Shown: positions 25,259 through 63,790, numbered from the stretch's first letter. The stretch: 64,000 bases of DNA from an uncultured Clostridium sp. (GCA_902493795.1 CABUQZ010000001.1:38697-102696); one strand, 5' to 3'. Notes: a model not told the origin generated them from the sequence alone. Translations and numbers: made by a program.

Positions 25259-26617
25259 TTATTTTTGTAAATTAATAGTTATCTTGTAACTAGAGTCACT
25301 ATCTGCTTCTTCAAAGCTAACTTTATATCCTTTACCTTCAAGTGAAGTAATTGCATTTTTTATATCAGCAATTGCAGGAGTTAAATCAGCTTTAGTTGGA
25401 ACAGCAATTCCAACAGATCCAATAGAACTAGCAACATTTACTGGTTCTTTAGCTATATTTGAGTTAAAAAATTGATCAAAATTATTAGTAGTTGGTGGTG
25501 GAGCTAAAGTAGAAGCTGTCGTTGTTTGCAAAGGAGATGTTGTAGTTTGTTCTTTATTTGCTGTTTGATTAAAACCAAACGTTGGAACAAATTTAAATCC
25601 ATCATTTTGTGGCTCAGTTGTATCTTTCATAAGATCTTTTACATCAACTGTTTCTGGTTTTATTCCACCTATATCAACAGAATTTTCTCTTATTTTATTT
25701 ATATCTATTGTTGTAGGATTATTTTGAGTTATAGGAGCACTTGTTTCTTTTACAGGTTCAGTTTCAGGCTCTGTAGATGAAGGTATTCCAAAATTAGCTA
25801 AATTAAATTGAGGTGCTGTTGTAGATTGTTCACTTGGTAACGAACTAACACTACCAATAGCTTGATTTTGAACATTTCCCACTATATCATTAGCTGTTAA
25901 CATATTATTAATTCCTATCTGGTTATTCATAGTAGCACCACCCTCAACTGTTCCACTTGGATTTACATTATCTGTTCCAGGTTTACTATCATTTATTAAC
26001 TTAATTTCTTTATCTAAATCTCTAACAGTCATCTTTTCATCAATGATTCTATTTAACATTTTTATTTGGTCATTTTTATCTTGAAGATTCAATAAGCTTC
26101 TTGCATGACGTTCAGAAATTTTCGTTTTTAACAAAGCATCTTGTACTTCATCTGGAAGAGCAAGCAATCTTAATTTATTAGATACAGAAGACTGTGTTTT
26201 ACCCATCGTTGCAGCAAGTTGCTCTTGAGTCATATTATCCTCAAGTTCTAGTATTTTTTGGTAAGTTCTTGCTTCTTCAATAGGAGTTAAATCCCTTCTT
26301 TGTAAGTTTTCAATTAATGCAACCTTAGAACTTTCTTTATCATCTAAATTTTTTACTATAGCAGGTATTTTAGTAAGTCCTGCCATAGTAGAAGCCTTAT
26401 ATCTACGTTCTCCTGCTATTATCTCATACTTATTATCAACTTTTCTAACAATAATGGGCTGAATAACCCCATGTTCCTTAATTGAAACAGCAAGTTCCTT
26501 TAATGCTTGATCATCAAAAACTTCTCTTGGCTGAAATCTATTAGGAATAATATCATCTAAATATAATGAAACTACTTCACTATTACCATCCATAACTAAC
26601 ACCCTCTTCTTATACAC
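25259..26617 (-). CDS. noc: Nucleoid occlusion protein Noc (ParB paralog) with a long low-complexity C-terminal extension
   Basis: IPNRFQPREVFDD..GVIQPIIVRK..EIIAGERRYKAS..KISERHARSLL matches Noc/ParB. Residues 230-415 are a T/P/Q/N-rich disordered tract, followed by a short C-terminal domain. Confidence 0.75.
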   Translation of the reverse strand: MYKKRVLVMDGNSEVVSLYLDDIIPNRFQPREVFDDQALKELAVSIKEHGVIQPIIVRKVDNKYEIIAGERRYKASTMAGLTKIPAIVKNLDDKESSKVALIENLQRRDLTPIEEARTYQKILELEDNMTQEQLAATMGKTQSSVSNKLRLLALPDEVQDALLKTKISERHARSLLNLQDKNDQIKMLNRIIDEKMTVRDLDKEIKLINDSKPGTDNVNPSGTVEGGATMNNQIGINNMLTANDIVGNVQNQAIGSVSSLPSEQSTTAPQFNLANFGIPSSTEPETEPVKETSAPITQNNPTTIDINKIRENSVDIGGIKPETVDVKDLMKDTTEPQNDGFKFVPTFGFNQTANKEQTTTSPLQTTTASTLAPPPTTNNFDQFFNSNIAKEPVNVASSIGSVGIAVPTKADLTPAIADIKNAITSLEGKGYKVSFEEADSDSSYKITINLQK

Positions 26618-26707: not shown

Positions 26708-28030
26708 TTATTTTAATTCTGGAACTGCATTTGTATCAGACGTTTCTACTCTTAAGAATCCATCATATTCTGCTGTTTCTCCAGGAGACAACGTTCTTCT
26801 TGTAGTATCATATTCAGATGGATAAAACGTATACTCATTATTATTTTTTACATACATTAATGGATTATAAGAATAAGCATTTTTAAACTCAGGAGGTGCT
26901 ACTAAAACAAATGACCAGTCTTTAACATCAGTAGAAGAAGTATTAGTAACATAAACATTATAATCTTCTACATAAGAGCTTCCTCCAGCTGTATAATAAC
27001 TTTTTCTTTCTAATCTAACTTTTAATGTAGGAAGTTCAGCATACATATCATTTGAATCTCCAACTACACCACCATGTGATGTTCCTTCATGAGTACCATC
27101 GATAAGTTCAACATATTGAATATTACCATTTTTCAATATAAACTCTTTGTCTTTAGGGAACTTAATTTGGAATCCACTATTGAAATTGCTATGTGATGCA
27201 TTTAAATAGTTCCATGTAGATTGAGATGGATTTCCTATAACTTTTAATTTAGTTCCATTTAATTCAAGCTTTACTAAGCTTTGATCAAATCCAGGATTAT
27301 CTAGAATTGTTCCTTCTGGTACATCAAAAGTTGCATCAAATGACTTAATTGTCGACAAGTTACCAATATTTGTAACATCAATTGCAGCATTATAACAAAC
27401 TTTATAATCACCTTGAATACTACATCTATCTAAACGAACATCTATTTTTAATTTCAAGTCTTTATAAATCCATGTAATGTTATCTGTTGTTGTTGTAGTA
27501 GTAATATTTTGTTCAATTGTTTCTTTAGATGTACAGTTTGCATTATATACGACAACATGTTCTTTCCCCTCGATTGATTGAATCTTAACATCTGATATAG
27601 ATAATCCAGCTTCAATTAAATCGGCATCCAAATCATCGTATTTTGTTAAATCTTTAATTCCTTGTCCTGTTTCATCAACACTTGTCCAATAATAATCATA
27701 TCCATTACCATTGTAAGTAACAACTATATAGGCACTGACGAAATCACCATATGGTGAAACTGGTTTATCTCCGTTTTCAAGGTTAATACAAGAAGATGGA
27801 ATGTAATAAGTAACTGAGGAATCGTATGCTTCTAACTTACCGCTATTAACTAAAACTCTAGCACCGCCAATAACTTGTTTTGCTGTATCGACATATGCAT
27901 TTTTCCTTGAACTAGAGATATATGAAGTAACACTAGGAATTGCAATTATCATCAATATACCCAATATGATAATAACTGCTAATAATTCAATTAAAGTAAA
28001 CCCTTTCTTATTCTTTTTTTTCATTTTCAT
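26708..28030 (-). CDS. Type IV prepilin-like protein (N-terminal methylation motif) with a large C-terminal extension containing two repeated beta-rich modules
   Basis: Class III signal KKGFTLIELLAVIIILGIL. The C-terminal half has two modules of about 90 aa sharing VTN..G...W / GF motifs, reminiscent of carbohydrate-binding or Ig-like domains. Confidence 0.7.
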   Translation of the reverse strand: MKMKKKNKKGFTLIELLAVIIILGILMIIAIPSVTSYISSSRKNAYVDTAKQVIGGARVLVNSGKLEAYDSSVTYYIPSSCINLENGDKPVSPYGDFVSAYIVVTYNGNGYDYYWTSVDETGQGIKDLTKYDDLDADLIEAGLSISDVKIQSIEGKEHVVVYNANCTSKETIEQNITTTTTTDNITWIYKDLKLKIDVRLDRCSIQGDYKVCYNAAIDVTNIGNLSTIKSFDATFDVPEGTILDNPGFDQSLVKLELNGTKLKVIGNPSQSTWNYLNASHSNFNSGFQIKFPKDKEFILKNGNIQYVELIDGTHEGTSHGGVVGDSNDMYAELPTLKVRLERKSYYTAGGSSYVEDYNVYVTNTSSTDVKDWSFVLVAPPEFKNAYSYNPLMYVKNNNEYTFYPSEYDTTRRTLSPGETAEYDGFLRVETSDTNAVPELK

Positions 28031-28052
28031 ATATCCTCTCTAATATAAGAAC

Positions 28053-28081
28053 ATTATAATTGATTTAATTAGCATTGTCAA
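28053..28081 (-). promoter_or_regulatory. Consensus sigma-A promoter driving the pilin-like gene (-35 TTGACA, 17 bp, -10 TATAAT)
   Basis: Perfect hexamers on the minus strand at 28076-28081 and 28053-28058. Confidence 0.6.
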
Positions 28082-30716: not shown

Positions 30717-33700
30717 CTATTCCTTTTCTTTAGCGACAGTCAACATTAGTTTTATTCTATTAACTTGATTAGTATGACTTGCTCCTGGATCATAATCAAT
30801 AGCAACAATATTACTATCTGGATAAAGTTTTCTTACCTTTTTAATTACTGCCTTACCTACTATGTGATTAGGAAGACAAGCAAAAGGTTGAACACAAACA
30901 ATATTATTTATACCTTCTTTAATAAGTTCAACCATCTCTCCAGTTAAGAACCATCCTTCACCAGTTTGATTTCCAACAGACAATATTCCTTCAACATTAT
31001 CAGCAAGTTTATAAATATCAACACTTTTTCTAAATCTAGTACCCTCTAACGCTTTATCTATTGGTTTCTCATATAAATGGATAATTTCAAGCATTTTTTT
31101 ACATAAGTAAGAGTAAAATGACCCTGTCTTAAACAATTTATCTTTAATTAAGCTATTATAAGCACAATACTTAACAAATCCCATAAGTTCAGGAGCACAT
31201 ACTTCTACTCCTTCTTTTTCAAGTTTATCAACTAAATGGTCATTTCCAAACGTATGATACTTAATAAGTATTTCACCAACAATTCCAACTTTAGGTAATT
31301 TTTTATCTTCTATTTCAATCTCACTAAATCTTTTAACAATTTTATTTATATTTTTCTTATATTCTTTAAATTTTCCATGATACAATGACTCTTCACACAT
31401 TTTTTCAAGCTCATCATACACTCTATTAGTTTCACCTTTGTTAACTTCATAAGGTCTAGTAGCATAGCTAAGTTTCATTAATAAATCACCATAACTTACT
31501 GCTTGAAGTAATTTATTGATAAGTGAAATATTTAAATGGAACGCTTGATCTTTTTCAAGTCCAGAAAAATTCAAAGACATAACTGAAACTTGAGGAAGCC
31601 CAGCATCTACTAAAGCTTTTCTAATTAGTCCTATATAGTTAGTAGCACGACATCCACCACCAGTTTGGGTTAAAATGACACTAGTATTATTAACATCATA
31701 TTTTCCACTAAGCAAAGTATGTACAAGTTGGCCTATAACTATAATTGCAGGATAACAAGCATCATTATTAACATATTTTAACCCTGTTTCAATCATTTCT
31801 TCAGTTGTTTCTTTTAAATATACAGGTTTATATCCTTGTGATAACAATGTTGCGCCCAACAAAGGCATATGAAATTGCGAAACATCAGGAAATAACAATA
31901 TATGTTTTTTATCGGCTTCACTAAAAGTATTCTTTTGATAACTATATGTTTCATATTCTTTATCATTTTGTCTTTTATTCATAGATGCAATTAAAGATCG
32001 AATTCTAATCTTTGCAGTACCTAAATTATTTACTTCATCTATTTTAATTGTAGTAAATAACTTATTATTAAATCTTAATATTTCTTCAGCTTGATCTGTT
32101 ACTATCGCATCAAGTCCACATCCAAAAGAATTTAAATTAACAAGTTCTAGGTTATCATAGCGACTTACAACATCACACGTATTAAATATTCTAGCATGGT
32201 ATTCCCATTGATTCATTACTCTCATTTTAGATTTAATTTTACTTAGATGACAAATTGAGTCTTCTGATAACACAGCAAGGCCTAAAGAATTTATCATAGT
32301 ATCAATTCCATGATTTACTTCTTTATCCAAATGATATGGACGCCCAGCAAGAACAATTGCCTTCTCATTATGTTTTAAAATATATTCTAAGAATTCTTCA
32401 CCCTTATCTTGAACGTCTTTTTTAAACTTTTCTTGTTCTTTAAACCCTAAAGCAACAGCTTTTTTAACTTCACTCTTTTTAAACTTGTATTTCTTAAATT
32501 CAGGAATTTCTAATAATCTCAAAACAAGTTTTTCTTGTTCAATAGGTAAAAATGGATTTATATAAGTTATATTGTTCTTCTCGATATCTTCAACATTTAA
32601 TTTAATTGCTTCACTATAAGAAGTTACTATTGGACAGTTATAATGGTTATCTGAGTTATCAAATTCACTTCTTTCATACATCAAACAAGGATAAAATATT
32701 GTCTTTACTCCTTTATTTATTAAATTGATAATATGTCCATGTACTAGTTTTGCAGGATAGCAAACTGATTCACTAGGCATTGATTCAATACCGCTTTCAT
32801 ATATTCTTCTATTAGAATGATCTGAAATAACAACTTTAAATCCCAAATTAGTGAATATTGTAAACCATAAAGGATAATCTTCATACATATTAAGTACTCT
32901 TGGAATACCTATTTCTCCACGTGGAGCATCTTCTATTGGTTTATAATCAAATAATCTATCATACTTCCAAGCATACATATTGGGTAATGTTGAACTGCTT
33001 CCATTGTTACCACTACCTCTTTCACACCTGTTACCAGAAATAAACCTTTTCTTATCAAACATATTTATTGTTAATGCACAATGGTTTTCACATCCCTGGC
33101 ATCTTGTGTTTGTTGTCTTAACCTTTTGATTTAATAGTTCTTCTTTAGAAAGCATAGAACTTACTATATCTTTATCGTCATACTTATTAAAGTTATCAAG
33201 AGCAATTAAAGCTACTCCATAAGCCCCCATAAGTCCAGCTATATCAGGTCTAATTACTTCTTTATGCGTAATATTTTCAAAAGCTTTTAAGACAGCATCA
33301 TTTAAGAATGTTCCACCCTGAACAACTATCTTTTCTCCTAGAGTAGTCATATCTCTTATTTTCATAACTTTTTGAATGGCATTACGAATAACAGAATAAG
33401 AAAGCCCAGCAAAAATATCACCTAAAGGTCTTCCCTCTTTTTGAGTTTGTTTTATTTTACTATTCATAAATACTGTACAACGACTACCTAAATCTATTGG
33501 AGACTTACTCTTAACAGCTAAGTCTACAAAATCATTAACTGTCATACCTAAGCTCTTAGCAAGTGTTTCAATAAAAGAACCACATCCACTAGAACAAGCT
33601 TCATTTAACATTATAGAGTTAACTGCACCATCTTTAATTCTGATGTACTTCATATCTTGTCCACCAATATCTATGATACTTTCAACTCCAGGCAAGAAAT

Positions 33701-34961
33701 AATTAGCAGCTTCATAATGAGCCATTGTCTCTATTTCACTAATATCAAGATTAAACGCTGTTTTAATAAGCATTTCACCATAACCAGTTGAACCACTTTG
33801 CCTAATAATAACTTTAGGAGGAAGTTTACTATATAAATCAAGGATCATTTCCTTAGCAGTATCATAAGGAGTACCTTTATTGCTTTGATAATTTTCATAT
33901 AGTAATTCCCCATCACTACTTATCAAAACAACCTTACAAGTTGTACTTCCAGCATCTATTCCTACAAATGCATCTCCAACATAACTATTTAAATCTCTTT
34001 TCTTAATTGAGGACTTTTTATGACGTTTTAAAAACTTTTCATAATCTTTATTATCTTTAAATAATGCTGGTAAATTATTAGATTCCTCTTCTTTAAAAGA
34101 CTCTAGTTTTTCCTGTATTTTTTTAAATTCTTTAATATCAAATACATTTTTCTTTTCTTTATCAAGTATTGCACCAATACACACAAAAACTTTTGTATCG
34201 ATATTAGGGTTAACCACTTCATCATCATTTAAGTTCAAAGTACTAATAAATCTATCTTTTAAACTAGATAAATAAGTAAGAGGTCCTCCCAAAAATATAA
34301 CATTACCCTTTATTGGCTTACCACAAGCAAGTCCACTTATTGTTTGGTTAACAACTGCTTGCATTATAGAAAGAGCTACATCTTCTTTTTTAGCTCCTTC
34401 ATTTAAAAGAGGTTGAACATCTGCTTTTGCAAACACCCCACAACGAGAAGCTATTGGGTAAATTGTTTTACCATTCTTAGCTAAATCATTAAGTCCTTCT
34501 GTTGTTGTATTCAAAAGTACTGCCATTTGATCCAAAAAAGAACCTGTTCCACCAGCACAAGAACCATTCATTCTTTGTTCTATTGTTTGATCAAAATATA
34601 TAATTTTAGCATCTTCCCCACCAAGCTCAATACACACATCAGTTTGAGGAACAAATTCCATAATAGCATTCTTACATGCAATTACTTCTTGAACAAAGTT
34701 AACATCCAAAAACTTAGCAAGTGCAATAGCACCACTACCAGTCATTGTTAATGTATAATTGTAACCTTTAAACTTTTCCATAATTTCAGAAAACAAAGTA
34801 AAAATTGTTTTCTTAGTATCTGAAAAATGTCTTCTATATTCACAAAATAAAATATTATTTTCTTTATCCATTACAACTGCTTTAACAGTAGTTGAACCAA
34901 CATCTAATCCTATATTTACTACTTTCATATAAATTACCACCGATAAAAATAATAGTAACAC
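30717..34961 (-). CDS. Fusion protein: two BadF/BadG/BcrA/BcrD-type ATPase (CoA-substrate-specific enzyme activase) domains, a DUF2229-like Cys-rich segment and a 2-hydroxyacyl-CoA dehydratase D-component (HgdB)-like domain
   Basis: Two acetate/sugar-kinase-fold blocks (NIGLDVGSTTVKAVV and FVGIDAGSTTCKVVL); Cys cluster RCQGCENHCALT..CERGSG; C-terminal HgdB-like region (~520 aa); 1414 aa in total. Confidence 0.65.
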   Translation of the reverse strand: MLLLFLSVVIYMKVVNIGLDVGSTTVKAVVMDKENNILFCEYRRHFSDTKKTIFTLFSEIMEKFKGYNYTLTMTGSGAIALAKFLDVNFVQEVIACKNAIMEFVPQTDVCIELGGEDAKIIYFDQTIEQRMNGSCAGGTGSFLDQMAVLLNTTTEGLNDLAKNGKTIYPIASRCGVFAKADVQPLLNEGAKKEDVALSIMQAVVNQTISGLACGKPIKGNVIFLGGPLTYLSSLKDRFISTLNLNDDEVVNPNIDTKVFVCIGAILDKEKKNVFDIKEFKKIQEKLESFKEEESNNLPALFKDNKDYEKFLKRHKKSSIKKRDLNSYVGDAFVGIDAGSTTCKVVLISSDGELLYENYQSNKGTPYDTAKEMILDLYSKLPPKVIIRQSGSTGYGEMLIKTAFNLDISEIETMAHYEAANYFLPGVESIIDIGGQDMKYIRIKDGAVNSIMLNEACSSGCGSFIETLAKSLGMTVNDFVDLAVKSKSPIDLGSRCTVFMNSKIKQTQKEGRPLGDIFAGLSYSVIRNAIQKVMKIRDMTTLGEKIVVQGGTFLNDAVLKAFENITHKEVIRPDIAGLMGAYGVALIALDNFNKYDDKDIVSSMLSKEELLNQKVKTTNTRCQGCENHCALTINMFDKKRFISGNRCERGSGNNGSSSTLPNMYAWKYDRLFDYKPIEDAPRGEIGIPRVLNMYEDYPLWFTIFTNLGFKVVISDHSNRRIYESGIESMPSESVCYPAKLVHGHIINLINKGVKTIFYPCLMYERSEFDNSDNHYNCPIVTSYSEAIKLNVEDIEKNNITYINPFLPIEQEKLVLRLLEIPEFKKYKFKKSEVKKAVALGFKEQEKFKKDVQDKGEEFLEYILKHNEKAIVLAGRPYHLDKEVNHGIDTMINSLGLAVLSEDSICHLSKIKSKMRVMNQWEYHARIFNTCDVVSRYDNLELVNLNSFGCGLDAIVTDQAEEILRFNNKLFTTIKIDEVNNLGTAKIRIRSLIASMNKRQNDKEYETYSYQKNTFSEADKKHILLFPDVSQFHMPLLGATLLSQGYKPVYLKETTEEMIETGLKYVNNDACYPAIIVIGQLVHTLLSGKYDVNNTSVILTQTGGGCRATNYIGLIRKALVDAGLPQVSVMSLNFSGLEKDQAFHLNISLINKLLQAVSYGDLLMKLSYATRPYEVNKGETNRVYDELEKMCEESLYHGKFKEYKKNINKIVKRFSEIEIEDKKLPKVGIVGEILIKYHTFGNDHLVDKLEKEGVEVCAPELMGFVKYCAYNSLIKDKLFKTGSFYSYLCKKMLEIIHLYEKPIDKALEGTRFRKSVDIYKLADNVEGILSVGNQTGEGWFLTGEMVELIKEGINNIVCVQPFACLPNHIVGKAVIKKVRKLYPDSNIVAIDYDPGASHTNQVNRIKLMLTVAKEKE

Positions 34962-40337: not shown

Positions 40338-41468
40338 ATGAAATTAAAAATAAAAAAAGATTTATTATTAGAAAATTTAAACAAAGTATCAAAAGCAATA
40401 TCAACAAAAAATTTAATACCAACTTTAGCAGGAATAAAGTTTGATCTTACAAAACAAGGATTAACTTTAACAGCATCTAATAATGATATTACAATCCAAA
40501 AATTTATTAAAATAGAAAAAGATAACATAAATGTGGATAAAGAAGGAGTAGCAATACTTCAAGGAAAAGATATATTAGATATAGTAAGAGTAATTCCTGA
40601 AGAAGAGATTAACATAGAAGTATTTGATGAATCAAAAGTACTAATATATACAGATGATGAAAAAATAAAATATGACTTAAATGTTATTAATAAAAATGAT
40701 TATCCTAATGTTGATTTAGAAAAAAGTGACAATTATATCACAATATCTGCAAAAAACTTACTTGATATAGTAAGAGAAACAGCATTTGCAACTTCAAGTG
40801 ATGAATCACGTCCTGTTCTTACAGGTATAAGCTTCAAAATTAATGGAGATTTACTTGAGTGTATAGCAACAGATTCTTATAGATTATCAAGAAAGAATTT
40901 AAGATTAGACAAAGCTGTTGAAGAAAACTACAATATTATAATTCCAGGAAAAAATATAATTGAATTTTCAAGAATAATAGATAGTAATGAAACAGAAGTC
41001 AAAATGCATATATTTAACAATAAAGTATTATTTGAAAATGAAGATTTACTATTCCAATCTAGATTAATAAGTGGAAATTATCCACCAACATCTAAATCTA
41101 TACCAGAAGAATTTAATTTAACTATTAAGGCTAATTTATCACAATTATATAATGTTATTGAACAAGCAAGTATTTTAACAACAGATAAAGAAAAAAATAT
41201 CGTTTCATTATCAACTAAAGACAACTTATTAACAGTAAAATCAGTTTCTAATGAAAAGGGAAAAGCTGAAATGAAAATGAATATAGAAAAAAATAACAAC
41301 GAAGAAATAACAATTGCTTTCAGTGCAAAATATATGATGGAAGCTTTAAACGCTTTATCAACAGAAGAAGTGGAAATGTCTTTTGTAGGAGAAGTAAAGC
41401 CTATAGTTATCAAGAATAACGTTGATGATGGATTACTTCAATTAGTAGTACCAATAAGAACATATTAA
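40338..41468 (+). CDS. dnaN: DNA polymerase III beta sliding clamp
   Basis: 376 aa three-domain beta clamp; synteny after dnaA. Confidence 0.95.
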   Translation: MKLKIKKDLLLENLNKVSKAISTKNLIPTLAGIKFDLTKQGLTLTASNNDITIQKFIKIEKDNINVDKEGVAILQGKDILDIVRVIPEEEINIEVFDESKVLIYTDDEKIKYDLNVINKNDYPNVDLEKSDNYITISAKNLLDIVRETAFATSSDESRPVLTGISFKINGDLLECIATDSYRLSRKNLRLDKAVEENYNIIIPGKNIIEFSRIIDSNETEVKMHIFNNKVLFENEDLLFQSRLISGNYPPTSKSIPEEFNLTIKANLSQLYNVIEQASILTTDKEKNIVSLSTKDNLLTVKSVSNEKGKAEMKMNIEKNNNEEITIAFSAKYMMEALNALSTEEVEMSFVGEVKPIVIKNNVDDGLLQLVVPIRTY

Positions 41469-41545
41469 TTACAATTTATTAGATAATTCGACAAATTATT
41501 ACAAACAAGGATGTTAATATATACCTCGTTCAAAGGGGGATATAT

Positions 41546-42004
41546 ATGAACAATTATGAAATTAATGAAGATACGTATGCAATTATTTCACAGAATAGTG
41601 GAAAAACAAGAATAGTAGAAAGAAAATATGAGTTAGATGTGGAAAAAAATGCATACGAAATTATGGATGAAAGCTGTAAATACTATGGAAGTAGCTATAA
41701 GGGTAGAATAGAAGCTGCTAAAGATATTTTAAATTGTAGCTATAAACTGCCAATACTAGTAGAGGAGAGTAGTGCATTAATATTTTTTCCAATTAAGTCT
41801 TCTTTATTAGAAGATTGCTGTTGGATTAATCTTAATAGCATTGATAATATTGAAAAACAGAATAATAAATCTATTGTGACATTTAAAAATGGTAAAAAAG
41901 TGACCTTTGATATTTCTAAACTTTCACTAGAAAATCAAATTTATAGATCATCTAAATTAGAGTCAATAATTTATAAAAGAAAAAGTGCAAAAAAAAGGGA
42001 TTAA
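41546..42004 (+). CDS. comK: ComK-family competence transcription factor homolog
   Basis: SCKYYGSSYKGR, KLPILVEESSALIFFPIKS, CCWINL, VTFKNGKKVTFDISKLSLENQIYRSSKL align with conserved blocks of B. subtilis ComK. Confidence 0.7.
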   Translation: MNNYEINEDTYAIISQNSGKTRIVERKYELDVEKNAYEIMDESCKYYGSSYKGRIEAAKDILNCSYKLPILVEESSALIFFPIKSSLLEDCCWINLNSIDNIEKQNNKSIVTFKNGKKVTFDISKLSLENQIYRSSKLESIIYKRKSAKKRD

Positions 42005-42101
42005 TTCCTTTTTTTTATTGGTTTTAGCCTCAAATTATGATATAATTATATTGTCTGTACAGGAATACCTAATATGGGGTAAGGTGAGAATATGAGCATT
42101 T

Positions 42102-43241
42102 TTGAGAGAAAAAATGATAGTTAAGAAAATTAGCTTAATAAATTTTAGAAATTTAATAAAACAAACAGTAACATTTTCAAAACATGCAAATGTTTTTATA
42201 GGAGATAATGCTCAAGGAAAGACAAATCTATTAGAAAGTATTTATTTTTTAGCTTTAACTAAATCATATAAAACAATAGATGCTAATTTAATAAATAAAG
42301 ATAAAACTTTTACTAAAGTTAAAGCAGAAATAAGAGATGAAAATATTTTTAAAAGTTTATCTGTTGAATTAAATGAGTCTAAAAAGATAGTTAAAGTAAA
42401 TAATAACGAAATTAGTAGAATTTCTGATTATATAACAAACCTTAATGTAATATTAGTATGTCCTGAAGATATAAATATTTTAGAAGGAGCACCTGCAGAA
42501 CGTAGAAACTTTTTAAATATTGAATTGAGTCAGTTATCAACAAATTATATTAAAAAGTATAACGAATTTAATAAGATATTAAAAATAAGAAATAACTACC
42601 TAAAAATGTTATCTCATAACGCTAATTCTGACCAAAGATACCTTGATAGCTTAACAGAGAATCTAATTGAAAGAGAGATAAGTATTTACCAGGAAAGAAA
42701 AAAATTTATTGATTTAATTAATTCAAATATAGCAGAAATTTATAAGGACATCATTGGAATAGATAATTTTAAAATTGTTTATGAAACAAACGTCGAATTT
42801 GATAATTATGAGACAGAACATTTAAAAGAAAGATTAATAAAAAAATATAAGACAAATTTAAAAAGAGAGATTGAAAATGGTATGACACTATATGGTCCTC
42901 ATAGAGATGACTTACATTTTTTTATTGATGATGATGATATAAAGTTATATGGATCACAGGGGCAGCAAAAAGTAGCTATAATAGCTCTTAAATTAGCAGA
43001 AATACCAATATTTAAGAATTTAACTACTACATATCCTATAATGTTATTAGATGATATTTTTAGTGAACTTGATGTAAAAACAAGGAATAAATTAATAAAT
43101 TATATTCCTGAAGATATTCAAGTAATAATAACATCTAATGATACAAGAGGTATAAATAAAAAATTTTTAGACTCTGCAAAGATATTTAAAGTAGTAAGAG
43201 GAAATATAATAGAAAAGGTGGGAAATAACAATGGAAAATGA
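42102..43241 (+). CDS. recF: DNA replication and repair protein RecF
   Basis: Walker [13 protein letters not shown] and signature LYGSQGQQK. An alternative start lies at 42114. Confidence 0.95.
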
Positions 43242-45153
43242 AAATTATGATTCTTCTTCGATACAAGTTTTAGAAGGACTAGAAGCTGTTAGAAAAAGAC
43301 CAGGAATGTACATAGGTACAACAGATGTTAAAGGATTACATCATCTTGTATGGGAAATTGTCGATAATTCAATTGATGAAGCTATGGCAGGATTCTGTAA
43401 GAATATTGAAGTAGTTATTAATAAAGACAATTCAATAACAGTAAAAGATGACGGACGTGGAATACCAGTAGATGTGCATCCTAAAACTAAAAAATCCACA
43501 GTAGAAACAGTATATACAATACTACATGCTGGAGGAAAATTTGGTGGAGGAGGATACAAGGTATCTGGAGGACTTCATGGTGTAGGAGCATCAGTTGTAA
43601 ACGCTTTATCAAAATGGCTTGAAGTAAAAGTATATAAAAATGGAAAAGTACATTTTATTAGATTTGAAAATGGTGGACATGCAGTCGAACCTCTTAAAAT
43701 AATAGGGGATTGCGAAGAAAATAGAACAGGAACAACAGTAACTTTTAAACCAGATCCTGAAATCTTTGATACAGATATCTATGACTACAACACATTAATG
43801 GTGAGAATAAGAGAGCTAGCATTCTTAAATAAAGGTTTATCTATTAATTTAAGAGATGATAGAGATGACGAAGATACAACAGGTCAAACATTCTTATATG
43901 ATGGTGGAATAAGTGAATATGTTAAGTTTATTAACACCGGAAAGACACCAGTACATGAAGATATTATTCACTTAGATGGTGAAGAAGATAGTGTTTTCTT
44001 TGAAGTAGCACTACAATATAACACTGGATATAATGAAAACATCTATTCATTTGTTAATAATATTAATACACATGATGGTGGAACGCATGAAGAAGGTGTA
44101 AGACGTGCTTTAACAAGAGTTATAAATAATTATGCTAGAAAATATAATTTGTTAAAAGAAAAAGATGAACCACTTACAGGAGACGATGTTAAAGAAGGTT
44201 TAACAATGATTGTATCTTGTAAGCATCCAAATCCTCAATTTGAAGGTCAAACAAAAGGAAGATTAGGTAACTCAGAAGTAAGAAAACTTGCTGATAATGT
44301 ATTTTCTGAAGGATTTGAAAGATTCCTATTAGAAAATCCAGATGATGCTAAGGCAATAGTAAATAAAGCAATACTTGCCTGTCATGCTAGAAATGCAGCA
44401 AAAAGAGCAAGAGAAATAACAAGAAAAAGTGACCTTGCAACAACTAATTTCTTTGGAAAATTATCAGATTGTAAAAGTAAAGATCCAAAAGTTTCAGAAA
44501 TATTTATAGTCGAGGGAGATTCAGCTGGAGGATCAGCTAAAAAAGAAAGAGATTCAATGACTCAAGCAATACTTCCATTAAGAGGAAAAATACTTAATGT
44601 TGAAAAGGCAAGAGTAGATAAAGCATTATCAAATGAAGAAATAAGAACGATAATTACAGCATTTGGTACTGGTATAGGTGATGAATTCGATTTAAGTAAA
44701 TTAAGATATGACAAAATTATAATAATGACCGACGCCGATGTTGATGGTTCTCACATAAGAGTACTTCTATTAACACTATTTTATAGATTCTTTAAACCAA
44801 TAGTAGAGGCAGGACATGTATATGCAGCACAACCTCCATTATTTAGAATTACACATGGAAAAATAAGAAAATATGTACTAAATGAAGAAGAACTTGATAA
44901 ATATTTAAATACTCTTCCTGAAAACGTAAGAAGCAAAGCAGAAATTGCCAGAATGAAAGGTTTAGGAGAGATGGACGCTGATGAATTAAATGAAACAACT
45001 ATGGATATTGAAAAGCGTGTATTAAGAAAGATAAATGTTGATGATTGTGTAGCAGCAGATGCAATATTCGAAAAATTAATGGGTGATGAAGTTGAACCAA
45101 GAAGAAAATTTATCGAAGAAAATGCTGGATACGTACAAAATCTAGATATTTAG
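43231..45153 (+). CDS. gyrB: DNA gyrase subunit B
   Basis: GHKL ATPase domain, Toprim [19 protein letters not shown]. Confidence 0.97.
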
Positions 45154-45165
45154 GAGGTGAGTTGA

Positions 45166-47763
45166 ATGGAAAACGAAGAAAATGAAAACAAAAATGAAGA
45201 GTTTGATGAAGCTCTAGAGAAAGTTGAAATAGATAATGCAAATTTTGCTGGATATTTCCATGAAAGAGATAGCCTAGCAGAAAACAACATTGTGGATGAA
45301 GTTAAAACATCATTTTTGGAATACTCAATGAGTGTAATTGCTTCTCGTGCTTTACCAGACTTAAGAGACGGTCTAAAACCCGTTCACAGACGTATTTTAT
45401 GGTCAATGTATGAATCAGGTTATACTCCAGATAAACCTCACAGAAAGAGCGCAAAAACAGTTGGAGAAGTTATGGGTAATTACCACCCACATGGAGATTC
45501 ATCAATTTATGAAGCAATGGTAAGAATGGCTCAAGATTTTAACCAAAGATATATGTTAATCGATGGACATGGAAACTTTGGTAATATCGATGGTGATGGA
45601 GCAGCAGCAATGCGTTATACTGAGTCAAGATTATCAAAGATATCACTTGAATTACTAAGAGATATTAATAAAAATACAGTTGATATGGATGATAACTTTG
45701 ATGTTACAAGAAAAGAACCTAAAGTCCTACCTGGAAGATTTCCAAATGTTTTAGTTAATGGAGCAATGGGAATAGCAGTAGGTATGGCTACAAATATTCC
45801 ACCACATAATTTAGGTGAAGTAATAGATGGTTGTGTTGCCTATATTGATAACCCAGATATTGATACTTTAGGACTTATGCATTATATCAAAGGACCTGAT
45901 TTTCCAACTGGTGGAACTATTTTAGGAAACTCTGGTATCAAACAAGCGTACGATACAGGAAAAGGAACAATAACTATACGCAGTAAAGCTGAAATAGAAG
46001 ATCATGGATCACATAGTTGTATAGTATTTTCTGAAGTACCATATGGAGTTAATACTATGGAGCTTAAGAATAAAGTTGCAGAACTTGTTCATAACAAAAC
46101 TCTAGATGGCATCGCAGATTATCACACAGATTTAAAAAATGGTATAAAAATAACAATTACATTAAAGAAAGATGCTAATCCGCAAGTTGTATTAAATAAC
46201 TTATATAAACACACTAATTTTCAAGTAACTTATGGAATAATAATGTTAGTACTTGATGGATTAACACCAAAAACATTGGGATTAAAATCAATTATTTCTA
46301 AATATATTGATTTCCAAAAAGAAGTAATAATTAGAAGAACTAAATTTGATCTTGAAAAAGACGAAAAAAGAGTACATATCCTAGAAGGATTTAAAATAGC
46401 ACTAGATAATATCGATGAAGTAGTTAAGATAATAAGAAATGCTGAAACTGATACAGAAGCTAAGAATAAATTGATGGAACGCTTCTCATTATCTGAAATT
46501 CAGTCAGATGCAATATTAGAGTTGAAATTAAGAAGATTAACAGGACTAGAAAGAGACAAGATTGAAGCTGAATTAAAGGCTTTACTTGCTGAAATAGAAG
46601 AGTTAAAATCTATTCTTGCTTATGAAAAGAAAGTACTAGAAATAATTAAGAAAGAAATGTTAGATATTAAATCTAAGTATTCTGATGAAAGAAGAACTAC
46701 TATAGATATGACAGCAGTAGATTACATCGAAGATGAATCATTAATTCCTGTTGAAAATATCTTAATTGCCTTAACTAATAAGGGATACATAAAAAGAGTA
46801 CCAAACGATACATTTAAGGCTCAAAATCGTGGTGGAGTAGGAATAAAAGGAATGTCAACTAACGAAGAAGATTTCCCTGAAAAACTTATTTCAATGAAGA
46901 CACATGATTATATATTAATGTTTAGTAATCTAGGTAAGGTATATAGAATGAAAGGATACGAAGTACCTGAGTATTCAAGACAAGCTAAAGGATTACCAAT
47001 AATTAATTTATTACCATTAGAAAAAGGAGAGAAAATAACATCTGTAGTTACACTAAAAGCAGAAAAAGATAACTCTTATTTAACTTTTGTAACTAAAAAA
47101 GGATTAATAAAGAGAACTGCTAGAGAAGAATTTGATACAATAAGATCTAATGGAAAGAAAGCTATTGTATTAAAAGAAGATGACGAATTAATAGCAGTAA
47201 AAAGAACAGATGGATCAAAAGAAATAGTAATTGGTGCAAGTAATGGTAAAGTAGTAAGATTTAATGAAACAGAAGTTCGTGTAATGGGAAGAGGAAGTTC
47301 TGGAGTAAGAGGAATCGAACTAATGGATGATGAACAAGTAGTAGGAGCAGAAGTTGTTGAAAAAGATGCTGAAGTTCTTATAGTAACAGAAAAAGGATAT
47401 GGAAAGAAAACACCAATTGAAGAATATAGATTAACTCATAGAGGAAGTAAAGGTGTTAAAACTCTAAATATTACTGATAAAAATGGAAAACTTGTTTCAT
47501 TAAGAACAGTAAATGGAACTGAAGATTTGATTATAATAACTGATAGTGGTATGACAATAAGAATTAATCTATCCCAAATATCAACATTAAGTAGAAATAC
47601 TCAAGGAGTAAGATTAATTAATCTAAAAGACGAACAAAAGGTATCTACAACAGCAATAATAGAAAAAGAAGAAAACGAAGAACAATTAGAGACTGAATCA
47701 GAAATAGAACAAAATATCGAATCTAATGAAGAAAATACTGTGGAAAAAAGTGAAGAAAATTAA
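45166..47763 (+). CDS. gyrA: DNA gyrase subunit A
   Basis: AMRYTE active-site Tyr region, C-terminal beta-pinwheel repeats and an acidic tail. Confidence 0.97.
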
Positions 47764-47804
47764 TAATTTAGTTGTAATTTATTAATTAATATAGTAAAAT
47801 TTAA

Positions 47805-47892
47805 TTGATGCAATAAGTACGGCAGAACTAGGTCAGGACAGGAATGTAGCAGCCTTAATGCTTATAAAAATTTGTACTTATGTGCATCATTT
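47805..47892 (+). ncRNA. ffs: Signal recognition particle RNA (small 4.5S-type)
   Basis: Domain IV motif AGGUCAGG-ACA-GGAA-UGU-AGCAGCC closes a GGAA tetraloop. The 5' segment GATGCAATAAGTAC pairs with the 3' segment GTACTTATGTGCATC. A tadA-scr-dnaX neighbourhood is known from Bacillus. Confidence 0.7.
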
Positions 47893-47913
47893 TTTTTGGA
47901 GTTGTGGAAGTAT

Positions 47914-48336: not shown

Positions 48337-48346
48337 TATAAAAAAT

Positions 48347-48372
48347 TGTGGATAAAAGTTTCACGTGAAACG
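48347..48372 (+). promoter_or_regulatory. Composite element 1: DnaA box TGTGGATAA (48347-48355) abutting parS-like AGTTTCACGTGAAACG (14/16)
   Basis: Direct sequence match; 1-nt gap. Confidence 0.7.
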
Positions 48373-48465
48373 AAGTAAAAAAAATCTACGTAATAATTCC
48401 AATAATAGATTATTTATTGGAATTTTTTTTTGAAAATATTTCCTTATTACATTTTTTATTTAAAT

Positions 48466-48850
48466 ATATTATTTCTTGGGAAATATTCTATAAATTATTT
48501 CCCAAAGACCATAGATAGTAAAAATATATTTCCCGAGAAATATTTATATATAATTATTATCTTAATATATTAGTTGTTAAAAAAAATATTTCCTGGGAAA
48601 TATTCGATAAATTATTTCCCAAAAACTATAAATAGTAAAAAATATATTTCCCGGGAAATAATTATATGTAATTATTATCCAATATAATAGTTGTTGAAAA
48701 AAAATTTTTCCCAGGAAATATTCTATAAATTATTTCCCAAAAACTATAAATAGTAAAAAATATATTTCCCGGGAAATAATTATATGTAATTATTATCCAA
48801 TACAATAGTTGTTGAAAAAAAATATTTCCTAGGAATTATATAAATATTTT
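48466..48850. repeat. About 3.2 tandem copies of a 119-bp repeat, each carrying two Noc-binding-site-like palindromes
   Basis: Unit starts at about 48466, 48586, 48704 and 48823. Perfect ATTTCCCGGGAAAT at 48646-48659 and 48764-48777. Variants with 1-3 mismatches: ATTTCTTGGGAAAT (48471), ATTTCCCGAGAAAT (48528), ATTTCCTGGGAAAT (48588), TTTTCCCAGGAAAT (48706), ATTTCCTAGGAATT (48825). Confidence 0.85.
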
Positions 48851-49135
48851 ATATAAAGTATTAATTAAAGAATAGTGATTGCAATTTTATTTTAAGAATA
48901 ATCTTTTTATATTATATAAGATTATTTTTATTTGTGGAAAAAGAAATATATAGTTTTAATAATAAAGAAAATAAACGAAGAAAAAATATTTAATAATAAA
49001 CATATTTTATAAAAAATAAATTTTGTATATGCATCTTGTTGATAAAAGTTATAAGTGGCAAAAGAGAAGAAAATATAAATGAAAAAATGGTAAAACGAAG
49101 AAAAAAAGATTAATTTATTAAATACAAACAGTTTA

Positions 49136-49161
49136 TGTGGATAAATGTTTCACGTGAAACA
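49136..49161 (+). promoter_or_regulatory. Composite element 2: perfect DnaA box TGTGGATAA plus perfect parS TGTTTCACGTGAAACA (49146-49161)
   Basis: 16/16 match to the Bacillus-type parS consensus TGTTNCACGTGAAACA. Confidence 0.85.
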
Positions 49162-49250
49162 TAATAATAATCTGGAAAAAGGAAGTAATAAACAAAATAG
49201 GTGAAAAACAGAACGGAGAATAAGATATTGATGAATAAATTAAGAAATCA

Positions 49251-49275
49251 AAAGGATAAAGTTTCATGTGAAACT
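49251..49275 (+). promoter_or_regulatory. Composite element 3 (degenerate): AAAGGATAA plus AGTTTCATGTGAAACT (13/16)
   Basis: Same architecture as the other units, with mismatches. Confidence 0.45.
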
Positions 49276-49375
49276 ATTGATAGTGGAAAAAGATATTATA
49301 TAGAATAAAAAAGAAAGTAAAACGGAGAAAAAAAGTTTTATATATAACATTTAAGAAAAATAATATGAACATTTT

Positions 49376-49400
49376 TGTGAATAATGTTTCACGTGAAACA
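49376..49400 (+). promoter_or_regulatory. Composite element 4: DnaA box TGTGAATAA plus perfect parS TGTTTCACGTGAAACA (49385-49400)
   Basis: 16/16 parS; the box has one mismatch. Confidence 0.85.
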
Positions 49401-49488
49401 TAAAACTTAGTGGAAAATATAAAAAATATTAATAATTTGATATGATTATAATTGTGACTAAATGCTTTATGTATCAAAATTTCTAGAT

Positions 49489-49513
49489 TGTGGAAAAAGT
49501 TTCACGTGAAACA
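49489..49513 (+). promoter_or_regulatory. Composite element 5: DnaA box TGTGGAAAA plus parS AGTTTCACGTGAAACA (15/16)
   Basis: Direct sequence match. Confidence 0.75.
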
Positions 49514-49585
49514 TTATAAATAAAATGTAGAATATAACTTATAAATAATATTTTAAATAATAATGTAATAAAAACGGTTGTGCTT

Positions 49586-49686
49586 TGTGGATAAAAATTG
49601 TTGATTAAAAAAATAGAAATATATGTAAAGTAAAATAAAAATAGAATATTAAAAAATAATTTTTATATATTTTTTATTGTGGATAA
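49586..49686 (+). promoter_or_regulatory. Two further perfect DnaA boxes (TGTGGATAA at 49586-49594 and 49678-49686) inside an almost pure A/T tract (49600-49900)
   Basis: 9/9 consensus boxes in the same orientation as the composite units; the flanking DNA is over 90% AT. Confidence 0.7.
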
Positions 49687-49930
49687 AATTTAAAAAAACA
49701 AAAAAATATGTGTTTTAACACTTTTTATATCAAGAAAATAACAAAAATGTAATAATAATATTTATATGTATGATTTTGCTTATAAAATATTTTTATAGAT
49801 AAAAAATAATGTTTTTATATAATGTCAATATGTATGCTTAAAAATAAATGTAAAGTATGTAAATATACGTAAAAATAATGATAACTTGTTGATAAAAAAT
49901 ATATTCAAAATGTCTGTAAAATAAAATATT

Positions 49931-49945
49931 TATGGTATAATATAT
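49931..49945 (+). promoter_or_regulatory. Extended -10 promoter element (TGgTATAAT) for dnaX
   Basis: tatggtataat lies 25 nt upstream of the dnaX start. Confidence 0.45.
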
Positions 49946-49967
49946 CTTGAGATTTATAGGGGGACTT

Positions 49968-55038: not shown

Positions 55039-55593
55039 ATGAAATTAATAGTAGGTTTAGGTAATCCTGGAAAAGAATATGAAAATACAAGACATAATAT
55101 CGGGTTTATTTTTATAGATAATTTTGCTAAATCATTAGGAGTAACTATAGAAAAAGAAAAATTTAATGGATTATATACACAAGTTACAATTAATGATGAA
55201 AAAGTAATTTTGTTAAAACCATTATCTTTTATGAACCTTTCTGGTGAAGTAGTAAGAAAATATGTTGATTTTTTTAAAATAGATATAAATGACATTTTAA
55301 TAATAAATGATGACTTAGATTTAACTTTTGGTAGAATTAGATTAAGGCCTTCTGGATCAAGTGGAGGACACAATGGTCTTAAAAATATTGCCTTACATTT
55401 AAATTCAGAGAAGTTTAAACGCATAAAAATAGGAATTTCTAATGATAAATCTATTGATACAAAAGATTATGTCTTAGGAAAATTTAGTAAAGAAGAAAAA
55501 GAAACTTTAGATAATCTGAAAGAAACAGTCAATAACATACTTAATGACTTTCTTTTAACAGATTTCGACAAGTTAATGTGCAAATATAATTAA
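55039..55593 (+). CDS. pth: Peptidyl-tRNA hydrolase
   Basis: MKLIVGLGNPGKEYENTRHNIGF; RBS AAAGGGG. The tracked ORF is extended upstream in-frame. Confidence 0.95.
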   Translation: MKLIVGLGNPGKEYENTRHNIGFIFIDNFAKSLGVTIEKEKFNGLYTQVTINDEKVILLKPLSFMNLSGEVVRKYVDFFKIDINDILIINDDLDLTFGRIRLRPSGSSGGHNGLKNIALHLNSEKFKRIKIGISNDKSIDTKDYVLGKFSKEEKETLDNLKETVNNILNDFLLTDFDKLMCKYN

Positions 55594-62450: not shown

Positions 62451-63209
62451 ATGCTTTTTTCAATTGGAGATTACGTAAGTAGAAATTCTCATAACAATGA
62501 TATTGTATTTAAGATTAAAAGAATAGATGGAAAAACTGCGATACTAGAAGGTGTAGAAGAAAGACTAATTGCAGATAGTGATTTAACTGATTTAAAAAAA
62601 GAAATAGAACTTCTTAACGATGATGATGAACGGCTAGAAGAAATATTTCAAAATACCAGGCTAGATAGAGGAGAGTATTTTTATCTTCCTGGTAAAATAC
62701 TACACATTGATGCAGATAAAGAGTATTTAGAAAGATGTATGAAACTTTATAAAAAAATGCATATAATGTCTTATGGAATTGTAATAGATGAAAAAGAAAT
62801 AGAAAATGTTATAACAGATTATTTAAATAAAATTAATCCAGACATCTTAGTAATAACAGGTCATGATGCATTAATAGGAAATAGAGAATATAAAAATAGC
62901 AAAAATTTCATAAATAGTATTTATAAAGCGAGACAATATGAAAAAAGTCACGATAAATTAATAATAATCGCAGGTGCTTGCCAATCAAACTACGAGGAAC
63001 TTATAAAAGCAGGTGCAAATTTTGCAAGTAGTCCTAAAAGAATAAACATACATGCACTAGATCCTGGTATTATTGCAAGTAAAATAGCATTATCAGATAA
63101 AAATAAACCTCTAGATTTAATTGAAATAATTAATAGTACTAAATATAAAGAGGAAGGGTTTGGTGGAATCATAACTAATGGAACTATGTATCAGGGGTAC
63201 CCAAGATGA
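62451..63209 (+). CDS. yabG: YabG-like protease (peptidase U57 family)
   Basis: N-terminus MLFSIGDYVSRNSHNNDIVFKIKRIDGKTAILEG resembles YabG; ksgA-yabG-veg synteny. Confidence 0.55.
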   Translation: MLFSIGDYVSRNSHNNDIVFKIKRIDGKTAILEGVEERLIADSDLTDLKKEIELLNDDDERLEEIFQNTRLDRGEYFYLPGKILHIDADKEYLERCMKLYKKMHIMSYGIVIDEKEIENVITDYLNKINPDILVITGHDALIGNREYKNSKNFINSIYKARQYEKSHDKLIIIAGACQSNYEELIKAGANFASSPKRINIHALDPGIIASKIALSDKNKPLDLIEIINSTKYKEEGFGGIITNGTMYQGYPR

Positions 63210-63421: not shown

Positions 63422-63502
63422 ATTGTTTGCATTTTCTTGCATTTTATATTACGATTATATTATAAGGTTATAGAAACTTTATGGATGGGGAGGATTCTAA
63501 TG

Positions 63503-63790
63503 GAGATTACATCAGTAAGAGTTAAAAGAGAAGAACGCGAAGGTTCTCATATGAAGGGTAGAGCTTCTGTTGTTATTGACAACGGTCTTGCAATTCACAA
63601 CATTCGTATCATTGAAGGAAAGAACGGATTGTTTATAGCTATGCCTAGCACTTCTAGAGAAGTTGAGAATGAAGAAGGAGAAACAGTAACAGTTCATCGT
63701 GATATTGTACACCCAATCAATCCTGAAATCAGAGCTATGTTCGAAGAAAAGATTCTTAAAGCTTACGAAGAAGCAGAAGAAACTGAATAA
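63503..63790 (+). CDS. spoVG: Septation protein SpoVG
   Basis: MEITSVRVKR...MKGRASVVIDNGLAIHNIRIIEGKNGLFIAMPS; RBS GGGGAGG. The tracked ORF begins upstream at 63437. Confidence 0.95.
   Translation, partial: EITSVRVKREEREGSHMKGRASVVIDNGLAIHNIRIIEGKNGLFIAMPSTSREVENEEGETVTVHRDIVHPINPEIRAMFEEKILKAYEEAEETE

Follow-up and report, generated by a model that had tools for sequence, protein, structure and literature searches.

In Bacillus, ComK acts as the switch that controls natural transformation and the K-state. To our knowledge, nothing is known of ComK in the uncultured, small-genome Bacilli of gut and rumen. The C-terminal tail of ComK holds the MecA-recognition motif that ComK shares with ComS, and Prepiak and Dubnau (2007) are said to have located the FMLYPK MecA-binding signal of the Bacillus protein in this tail. 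ComS and ComK compete for MecA (PMC5506225). Removal of the 25 C-terminal amino acids of B. subtilis ComK leaves DNA binding intact but abolishes activation of comG, and ComK2 of B. cereus, which is 22 amino acids shorter, lowers comG expression (PMC3128618). The B. subtilis comK promoter is bound directly by Spo0A~P (PMC3297582), which is a precedent for Spo0A-to-comK wiring. A different arrangement is found in Streptococcus pneumoniae, where comCDE lies next to oriC and competence responds to replication stress via gene dosage (PMC8394987, PMC5034851).

The window analyzed here is a 64,000-nucleotide stretch of DNA from an uncultured Clostridium sp. (GCA_902493795.1, CABUQZ010000001.1:38697-102696). 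It spans a replication origin and has an overall GC content of about 27%. An ORF on the plus strand that begins with ATG and encodes 152 amino acids lies between dnaN and recF, and is called comK below (Table 1). The family is known, and annotation pipelines already use the name ComK for such proteins; what is new here is that the gene has a fixed location at the origin and a compact promoter with 0A boxes, and that the protein lacks the regulatory tail. These features yield a concrete wiring proposal, in which Spo0A boxes would control a short ComK, which in turn would control a set of target genes.

Table 1. Features of the comK locus, with triple box arrays in other contigs (positions are those of the window unless a contig handle precedes them)
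Feature	Position	Strand	Basis or remark
dnaA	38826-40208	+	ORF list
dnaN (beta clamp)	40338-41468	+	ORF list; Pfam DNA_pol3_beta three times on the identical same-species gene
Three 7-bp boxes, 10-bp period	41477-41503	+	phased array in 43 relatives
Box 1, TATTAGA	41477-41483	+	3/7 match to TTCGACA
Box 2, TTCGACA	41487-41493	+	7/7 match
Box 3, TATTACA	41497-41503	+	4/7 match
Extended -10 of comK, TGTTAATAT (TGn + TAATAT)	41512-41520	+	TGn-TATAAT or TGn-TATAAG, 11-12 nt after box 3, in most loci
Shine-Dalgarno, AGGGGGA	41534-41540	+	5-6 nt before the comK ATG
comK	41546-42004	+	short-form ComK-family protein, 152 aa; Pfam ComK, 141 bits
Intrinsic-terminator-like hairpin	41990-42017	+	A-run, GGGA, loop holding the TAA stop, TTCC, T-run; dG -9.8 kcal/mol
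Extended -10 for recF-gyrB-gyrA, TGATATAAT	42038-42046	+	TGnTATAAT nearly invariant in 44 comK-recF gaps
Palindrome GTAnnGGnnTAC (GTACAGGAATAC in the window)	42057-42068	+	conserved column block in all 44 comK-recF gaps
recF	42114-43241	+	ORF list; ATG at 42114 confirmed by gene callers on identical same-species contigs
gyrB	43231-45153	+	ORF list; overlaps recF by 11 nt
gyrA	45166-47763	+	ORF list
Triple array upstream of Spo0A homologue	L058 1031-1056		
Triple array upstream of Spo0A homologue	L053 2320-2345		
Triple array upstream of Spo0A homologue	L104 10871-10896		
Triple array upstream of Spo0A homologue	L150 2053-2078		
Triple array upstream of soj, 26%-GC relative	L063 1545-1570		
Triple array before SpoVS-like gene	L127 8601-8626		gene called by eye from its translation

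The short ComK-family protein

An earlier note on this DNA had read the protein as a ComK homologue and proposed a profile search as a check. The Pfam ComK profile (PF06338) matches the protein over profile positions 2-150 of 152 with 141.2 bits (E 2.8e-41), well above the family cut-off of 22.3. Searches with the same protein gave no match to a ComK model in NCBIfam and no match to sequences in the PDB. As a Bacillus reference, a 192-amino-acid sequence (P0271) was taken from a cluster named ComK; it is 97% identical to the B. subtilis ComK sequence used as the query. BLASTP aligns the 152-amino-acid protein with residues 9-152 of this reference at 33% identity (E 9e-28), which covers the whole conserved core. 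Both motif blocks quoted in the earlier note are common to the two proteins: the SCxxxGSSYxGR block reads SCKYYGSSYKGR in the window and SCRFFGSSYAGR in Bacillus, and NGK...ENQIYR in the window corresponds to NGK...ENQVYR. Residues Y4, T10, E25, C44, G48, S49, G53, R54, K67, P69, F81, S85, C91, W93, N115, S124, S127, Q131, L138 and R145 are invariant in 38 aligned short and Bacillus ComK sequences, and 10 of them remain invariant when sequences of relatives are added. Judged by these similarities, the ORF product is almost certainly a ComK-family DNA-binding protein.

The short form is widespread. Close homologues of the 152-amino-acid protein number 361. Among the best 120 of these, nearly every one has a length of about 152 amino acids, and those that are named are annotated as 'competence protein ComK' from 'Bacilli bacterium' MAGs. 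An exhaustive search with a limit of E<1e-3 returned 1104 ComK-family representatives; among the 150 closest, the majority comprise 140-157 amino acids. Thus, the form without a tail represents a large branch of the ComK family.

An AlphaFold2 model of short ComK built from the 38-sequence alignment (pLDDT 88, pTM 0.84) is mostly beta: it has two regions of beta-sheet and two helices, plus a long helix at the C-terminus. The top PDB matches of the model in Foldseek are LytTR DNA-binding domains (3d6w, pneumococcal ComE 4cbv and AgrA), with a weak resemblance (E 0.009-0.09, TM 0.33-0.40 on the query). Unlike AgrA and ComE, short ComK is not a LytTR protein at the level of sequence: its score against Pfam LytTR (PF04397) is 16.6 bits, under the gathering threshold of 22.6. 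The weak structural resemblance agrees with this sub-threshold match, and also with a 2026 preprint in which fold similarity among ComK, AgrA-LytTR, RemA and SwrD is noted (PMC13232269).

The protein differs from Bacillus ComK at both ends. It does not have the 8-amino-acid N-terminal extension, and it stops 12 residues past the aligned core, so that the C-terminal Bacillus tail of about 40 amino acids (KFQDR...EFMLYPKE...ILRELGERY in P0271) has no counterpart. The earlier observation that the protein is shorter than ComK and lacks its tail is therefore borne out by BLASTP and by the alignments (152 versus 192 amino acids), and the canonical Bacillus-type activation and MecA tail, of about 25-40 amino acids, is absent. 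Because the tail is missing, it is probably transcription that determines the level of ComK in this lineage, and not the MecA/ClpCP-ComS switch, which short ComK would escape; independence from MecA appears to be the best reading of the truncated C-terminus. ComK2 of B. cereus is likewise a ComK-family protein without the C-terminal region, but it is only 22 amino acids short, occurs alongside a full-length ComK1 and is not reported at the origin. In view of the published results with tail-less ComK (PMC3128618), activator function is not to be assumed for short ComK.

Gene order and transcription units at the origin

The GC skew of the window changes sign at about 38 kb, together with a flip in gene orientation, such that rnpA-yidC-jag are directed leftward and dnaA rightward. 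The gaps on the two sides of comK are 77 and 109 bp, so no S4-like yaaA is present between dnaN and recF, and the overlap of recF and gyrB likewise leaves no remB; none of the loci with comK between dnaN and recF has room for either gene. As the earlier note had stated, comK occupies the slot that yaaA holds in model Firmicutes; in S. aureus, for example, the order is dnaA-dnaN-yaaA-recF-gyrB (PMC10821479).

A locus scan using one genome per species returned 48 loci. The order dnaA-dnaN-comK-recF-gyrB-gyrA, with comK colinear, is found in 43 of the 48 species-level genomes, all of which are uncultured Bacilli-type MAGs from gut and rumen, and which include one closed 1.31-Mb chromosome. The five exceptions comprise one Bacillales MAG and four Bacillus or Peribacillus genomes; in the latter (L045-L048), comK lies away from the origin, in contrast to its position between dnaN and recF here. 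The same order also occurs in five metagenome contigs, one of which has 21% GC and a ComK that is 29% identical, and in five same-species contigs. Repetition on this scale implies that the placement is not due to chance. The placement had been called unusual, and this holds by comparison with model organisms, but not within the lineage, where the order is the rule. The occurrence of comK at one fixed origin-proximal place in at least 43 species also makes it a simple lineage marker.

The lowest identities to the window among the 43 genomes are 38% for ComK, 37% for DnaA and about 62-70% for GyrA and GyrB. Because the order is kept at such low identities, the arrangement is old. In every locus, ComK identity tracks that of RecF and DnaN, and ComK evolves about as slowly. 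For example, dnaA, dnaN, comK and recF are 77, 85, 76 and 73% identical to the window in L001, and 51, 46, 43 and 46% identical in L029. ComK length remains within 147-156 amino acids across 44 loci. These comparisons show what is evidently strong constraint on the ComK sequence. A pseudogene or decaying remnant was considered and rejected, given that the length is constant, that identity is comparable to that of RecF and DnaN, and that the exact protein is present on at least 23 contigs. On balance, we lean toward a functional short ComK, the gene for which has become fixed at this site throughout a deep lineage of gut Bacilli that are uncultured and have small genomes. A literature search on ComK together with dnaN and recF returned nothing relevant.

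The loci share a conserved order of elements: a box array, an extended -10, a ribosome binding site, comK, a terminator and a separate recF promoter. A hairpin followed by a T-run (dG <= -4) is found after comK in 37 of 44 loci. Its stem cores vary (GGGA/TCCC, GAGAT/ATCTC, GGCT/AGCC and ATAGG/CCTAT), which indicates that the structure is kept while the sequence changes. The GTAnnGGnnTAC palindrome sits just downstream of the recF promoter. In the window's subgroup, the recF leader (42038-42124) includes a strong ribosome binding site (AAGGTGAG) with an ATG that opens a 10-codon mini-ORF at 42092-42124. This mini-ORF overlaps the recF start at 42114, and recF has no obvious ribosome binding site of its own, which together suggest translational coupling.

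The earlier note had described comK as embedded in the dnaA operon, and had suggested a coupling of replication-gene and competence expression. The first description is too simple, given that comK has its own conserved promoter, ribosome binding site and terminator, and that recF has a separate promoter. Co-transcription with dnaA-dnaN was rejected as the main control of comK for the same reasons, and also because a terminator follows dnaN in the deeper-branching relatives. It is highly probable that comK forms its own insulated one-gene transcription unit, with a transcript predicted to begin near 41527 and to end near 42017. Coupling to the replication genes by co-transcription is thus unlikely, except that read-through from dnaN into comK is possible in the window's subgroup.

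The comK promoter and its candidate regulator

The comK promoter has no -35 hexamer at 17 bp from the -10, and the TCGACA of its perfect box lies 21 nt upstream of the -10. The lack of a -35 explains why a simple consensus promoter scan missed the extended -10. Generic promoter and terminator scans, moreover, found no more sites than in shuffled sequence, and are uninformative in DNA this rich in A and T. Alignment of the dnaN-comK gaps from 44 loci revealed that TTCGACA recurs upstream of comK, in two or three copies and with an exact period of 10 bp. The TTCGAC sequence occurs 54 times in these gaps, compared with 0.24 expected, and pairs of boxes are exclusive to them, with none elsewhere on either strand in about 580 kb of origin-region sequence. 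In relatives, these gaps also show an enrichment of about 40-fold for GGGGGA and AGGGGG, which mark a strong ribosome binding site.

The array varies in quality within the lineage. In the deeper-branching relatives (L029-L044), all three boxes are perfect and dnaN is followed by a terminator; in the window's subgroup, the boxes are generally more degenerate and dnaN has no terminator. Variant boxes are alike within a genome: CCGACA is found three times in L008, TCGCCA twice in L013, TTCGACC twice in L023 and TTAGACA twice in L033. The comK 5' leader of L029-L044 also contains a conserved palindrome or hairpin of the type CCAAT-N3-5-ATTGG, for example GCCAATTTATTGGC, between the -10 and the ribosome binding site; this element is absent from the window's subgroup.

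In contrast to the B. subtilis comK promoter, the promoter here is a compact tandem 0A-box array without K-boxes. Canonical ComK is autoregulated by way of K-boxes, dyads of AAAA-N5-TTTT with spacings of 8, 18 or 31 bp, and this feature has no counterpart upstream of this comK. No B. subtilis-type K-box with at most one mismatch is present within 250 bp upstream of comK in 44 loci, and the weak matches (at most three mismatches) upstream of comK are formed by the dnaN terminator, at positions that are not conserved. No DnaA boxes flank comK.

Read on the opposite strand, the TTCGACA box gives TGTCGAA, the core of the 0A box to which Spo0A binds. Structural work indicates that Spo0A binds in tandem to 7-bp boxes separated by 3-bp spacers. 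The Spo0A-activated spoIIG promoter has a -35-like element about 22 bp from its -10. Promoters of the spoIIG and spoIIE type carry the core head-to-tail at 10-bp spacing, overlapping the -35 region, as the comK promoter does, and neither kind has a properly spaced -35. The comK promoter differs from Spo0A-dependent sigma-A promoters in that its gene is not a sporulation gene, and its Spo0A site is a prediction made from sequence. Tandem 0A boxes in the promoter region are a feature of the Spo0A regulon; the window has one perfect and two degenerate boxes, and most of the 43 relatives have two or three good ones at the 10-bp period. A CtsR operator, a CodY box and a LexA box were rejected as identities for the boxes, which agree exactly with the 0A core but not with any of these three. 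Spo0A contacts G2, C4 and G5 of the core (PMC3485338), and most of the variant boxes in relatives retain these three bases.

A metagenome scan for three phased TCGACA boxes yielded 120 loci. In four high-GC metagenome contigs, the triple array lies about 130-190 bp upstream of genes for Spo0A homologues, which are 43% (L058) or 30% (L053, L104 and L150) identical to B. subtilis Spo0A. Together with the arrays before soj and before a SpoVS-like gene (Table 1), these examples support the array as a genuine type of Spo0A site. One other pair of 0A boxes was found in the window and flanks, a weak pair before mfd at 55554 that is not above chance.

The window also includes the sporulation genes for YabG (284 bits) and SpoVG, at 62451-63209 and 63437-63790, and those for veg and YabP are just beyond its end (same-species scaffold; L174 11564-11854). 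The presence of yabG, spoVG and yabP implies that this small-genome organism keeps sporulation-specific genes. No spo0A gene was found in the window or in the roughly 17 kb of flanking sequence from the same species; the genes in these flanks are housekeeping genes plus veg, spoVG and yabP, with no mecA among them. One survey, which covers RF39, RFN20 and ML615J-28 (all orders of uncultured Bacilli), treats yabG as a sporulation gene and reports that spo0A is encoded throughout, except in two RFN20 families (PMC10868615). Assignment of the window's lineage to RF39 or RFN20 is a guess.

Proteins of the LytTR type bind direct repeats, and the fold search returned LytTR domains as its best matches to ComK. 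Perhaps, then, the phased boxes are bound by ComK itself, in an autoregulatory loop that uses direct repeats in LytTR-like fashion, or by some other lineage-specific regulator. B. subtilis ComK is autoregulatory (PMC3297582), the concerted variation of boxes within a genome could reflect co-evolution with a faster-evolving binding protein, and spo0A was not seen near the locus. However, a slipping tandem 10-bp repeat is also expected to change in concert, most variants keep the three bases contacted by Spo0A, and the boxes equal the 0A core exactly, in the tandem 10-bp spacing. In addition, identical triple arrays precede spo0A homologues in high-GC contigs where the stretch examined contains no match to ComK. 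A binding protein other than Spo0A is accordingly quite unlikely. We somewhat favor control of short comK by Spo0A, although the poor matches of boxes 1 and 3 in the window count against it. Transcription of comK would then depend on a regulator that binds the 10-bp-phased boxes at about -51 to -25, and this regulator would most likely be Spo0A~P, which is favored by the 0A core in Spo0A tandem spacing, the arrays before spo0A homologues and the retained sporulation genes. It could act as an activator or as a repressor. B. subtilis comK, the promoter of which is bound by Spo0A~P (PMC3297582), would be comparable in this respect.

Possible output of comK and other features of the window

The presumed output of the pathway would be a K-state or DNA-uptake program, which is the least supported step of the proposal. 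None of comG, comE and comF was revealed by Pfam annotation of the 64-kb window and of about 17 kb of sequence that flanks it in the same species. These regions contain origin-region housekeeping genes, as well as genes for a ClpC-like ATPase, ssb and a CinA-domain protein. The window has two K-box matches with 8-bp spacing, compared with 0.36 expected, which is no convincing excess, and none with 18-bp spacing. One of the two lies inside prfB and the other in an AT-rich region of DnaA boxes, and neither precedes a competence gene. With no com genes and no K-box excess in the sequence examined, it is family membership that points to a role in competence.

A gene for a type IV pilin-like protein of 440 amino acids is located at 26708-28030 on the minus strand, between rsmG and a noc-like gene. 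The N-terminus of this protein is that of a type IV prepilin (KKGFTLIELLAVI), and the gene has a perfect TTGACA-17-TATAAT promoter at 28052-28080, with a terminator upstream. Nothing else in the window hints at machinery for pili or DNA uptake.

That short ComK is a competence activator is a fair possibility judged from its sequence, though somewhat short of probable. A less probable reading is that short ComK is not a competence activator, but a tail-less DNA-binding repressor or modulator like ComK2, or a regulator with another set of targets, such as DNA repair, the adjacent recF-gyrBA unit or growth arrest. The whole C-terminal region is missing from short ComK, and proteins truncated in this region either fail to activate comG, in the case of B. 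subtilis ComK, or lower its expression, in the case of ComK2 (PMC3128618). The absence of competence genes and K-box excess in the window and flanks, and the conserved palindrome at the neighboring recF promoter, point in the same direction. Against this reading, forms of about 150 amino acids make up most of the closest 150 of the 1104 family representatives, so activation may not need the Bacillus tail in general; moreover, the window does contain the type IV pilin-like gene, and nothing links ComK to the recF palindrome. If ComK drives DNA uptake, abundant gut organisms would be naturally transformable, which bears on gene flow and on their genetic tractability. If it does not, the job of the family's large tail-less branch is a different one.

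The position of comK might also matter in itself. The gene lies about 3 kb from the GC-skew switch and from clusters of DnaA boxes, and its placement is kept even where DnaA is only 37-50% identical to that of the window. It is conceivable, but unlikely, that comK is held near oriC such that a rise in its dosage on initiation or fork stalling triggers the ComK program. The origin-proximal comCDE genes of S. pneumoniae provide a precedent (PMC8394987, PMC5034851), with a competence-family regulator beside oriC in both cases; however, the pneumococcal genes encode a two-component system and a peptide pheromone in another lineage, whereas comK is known here from its sequence. A tight conserved cluster, furthermore, can hold synteny without selection on the position of an inserted gene, and an effect of position would be compatible with Spo0A-controlled transcription of a fixed comK, rather than exclusive of it. 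Coupling of comK to replication through gene dosage is therefore a conjecture by analogy, for which this locus could be a second natural case, after comCDE, for asking whether location hard-wires competence to replication. More speculative still, and improbable as a whole, is a scheme in which ComK dosage reports the state of replication and ComK acts on the recF-gyrB-gyrA promoter, perhaps through the GTA-N6-TAC palindrome, as well as on DNA-uptake genes; with Spo0A input, this would constitute a compact module for replication stress, the K-state and repair in gut Bacilli with reduced genomes.

Several other features of the window were identified. A 1.6-kb non-coding stretch with 19% GC lies at 48337-49946, between tadA and dnaX. 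It includes nine DnaA boxes, four of them perfect (TTATCCACA), with five copies of the palindrome GTTTCACGTGAAAC right by the DnaA boxes, and seven copies of the palindrome ATATTTCCCGGGAAATAT at a period of 58-60 bp. Judged by its sequence, this stretch, which is 10 kb from dnaA, resembles a cluster of DnaA boxes or a second origin-like element; the GC-skew switch is at about 38 kb and not within it.

The mnmG and mnmE genes are adjacent in model Firmicutes. Between them in the window is a gene on the minus strand (30717-34961) for a 1414-amino-acid protein with two BcrAD/BadFG ATPase regions and DUF2229, of the CoA-enzyme activase type. The noc position is occupied by a second ParB-like protein of 452 amino acids (25259-26617, minus strand), in which ParB_N and HTH_ParB are found in the first about 210 residues, followed by a long C-terminal extension without a recognized domain. 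A small SRP RNA (44.9 bits) is located at 47804-47894, directly after gyrA. Because this RNA overlaps the mechanically predicted start of the tadA ORF (47872), the real tadA start is further downstream.
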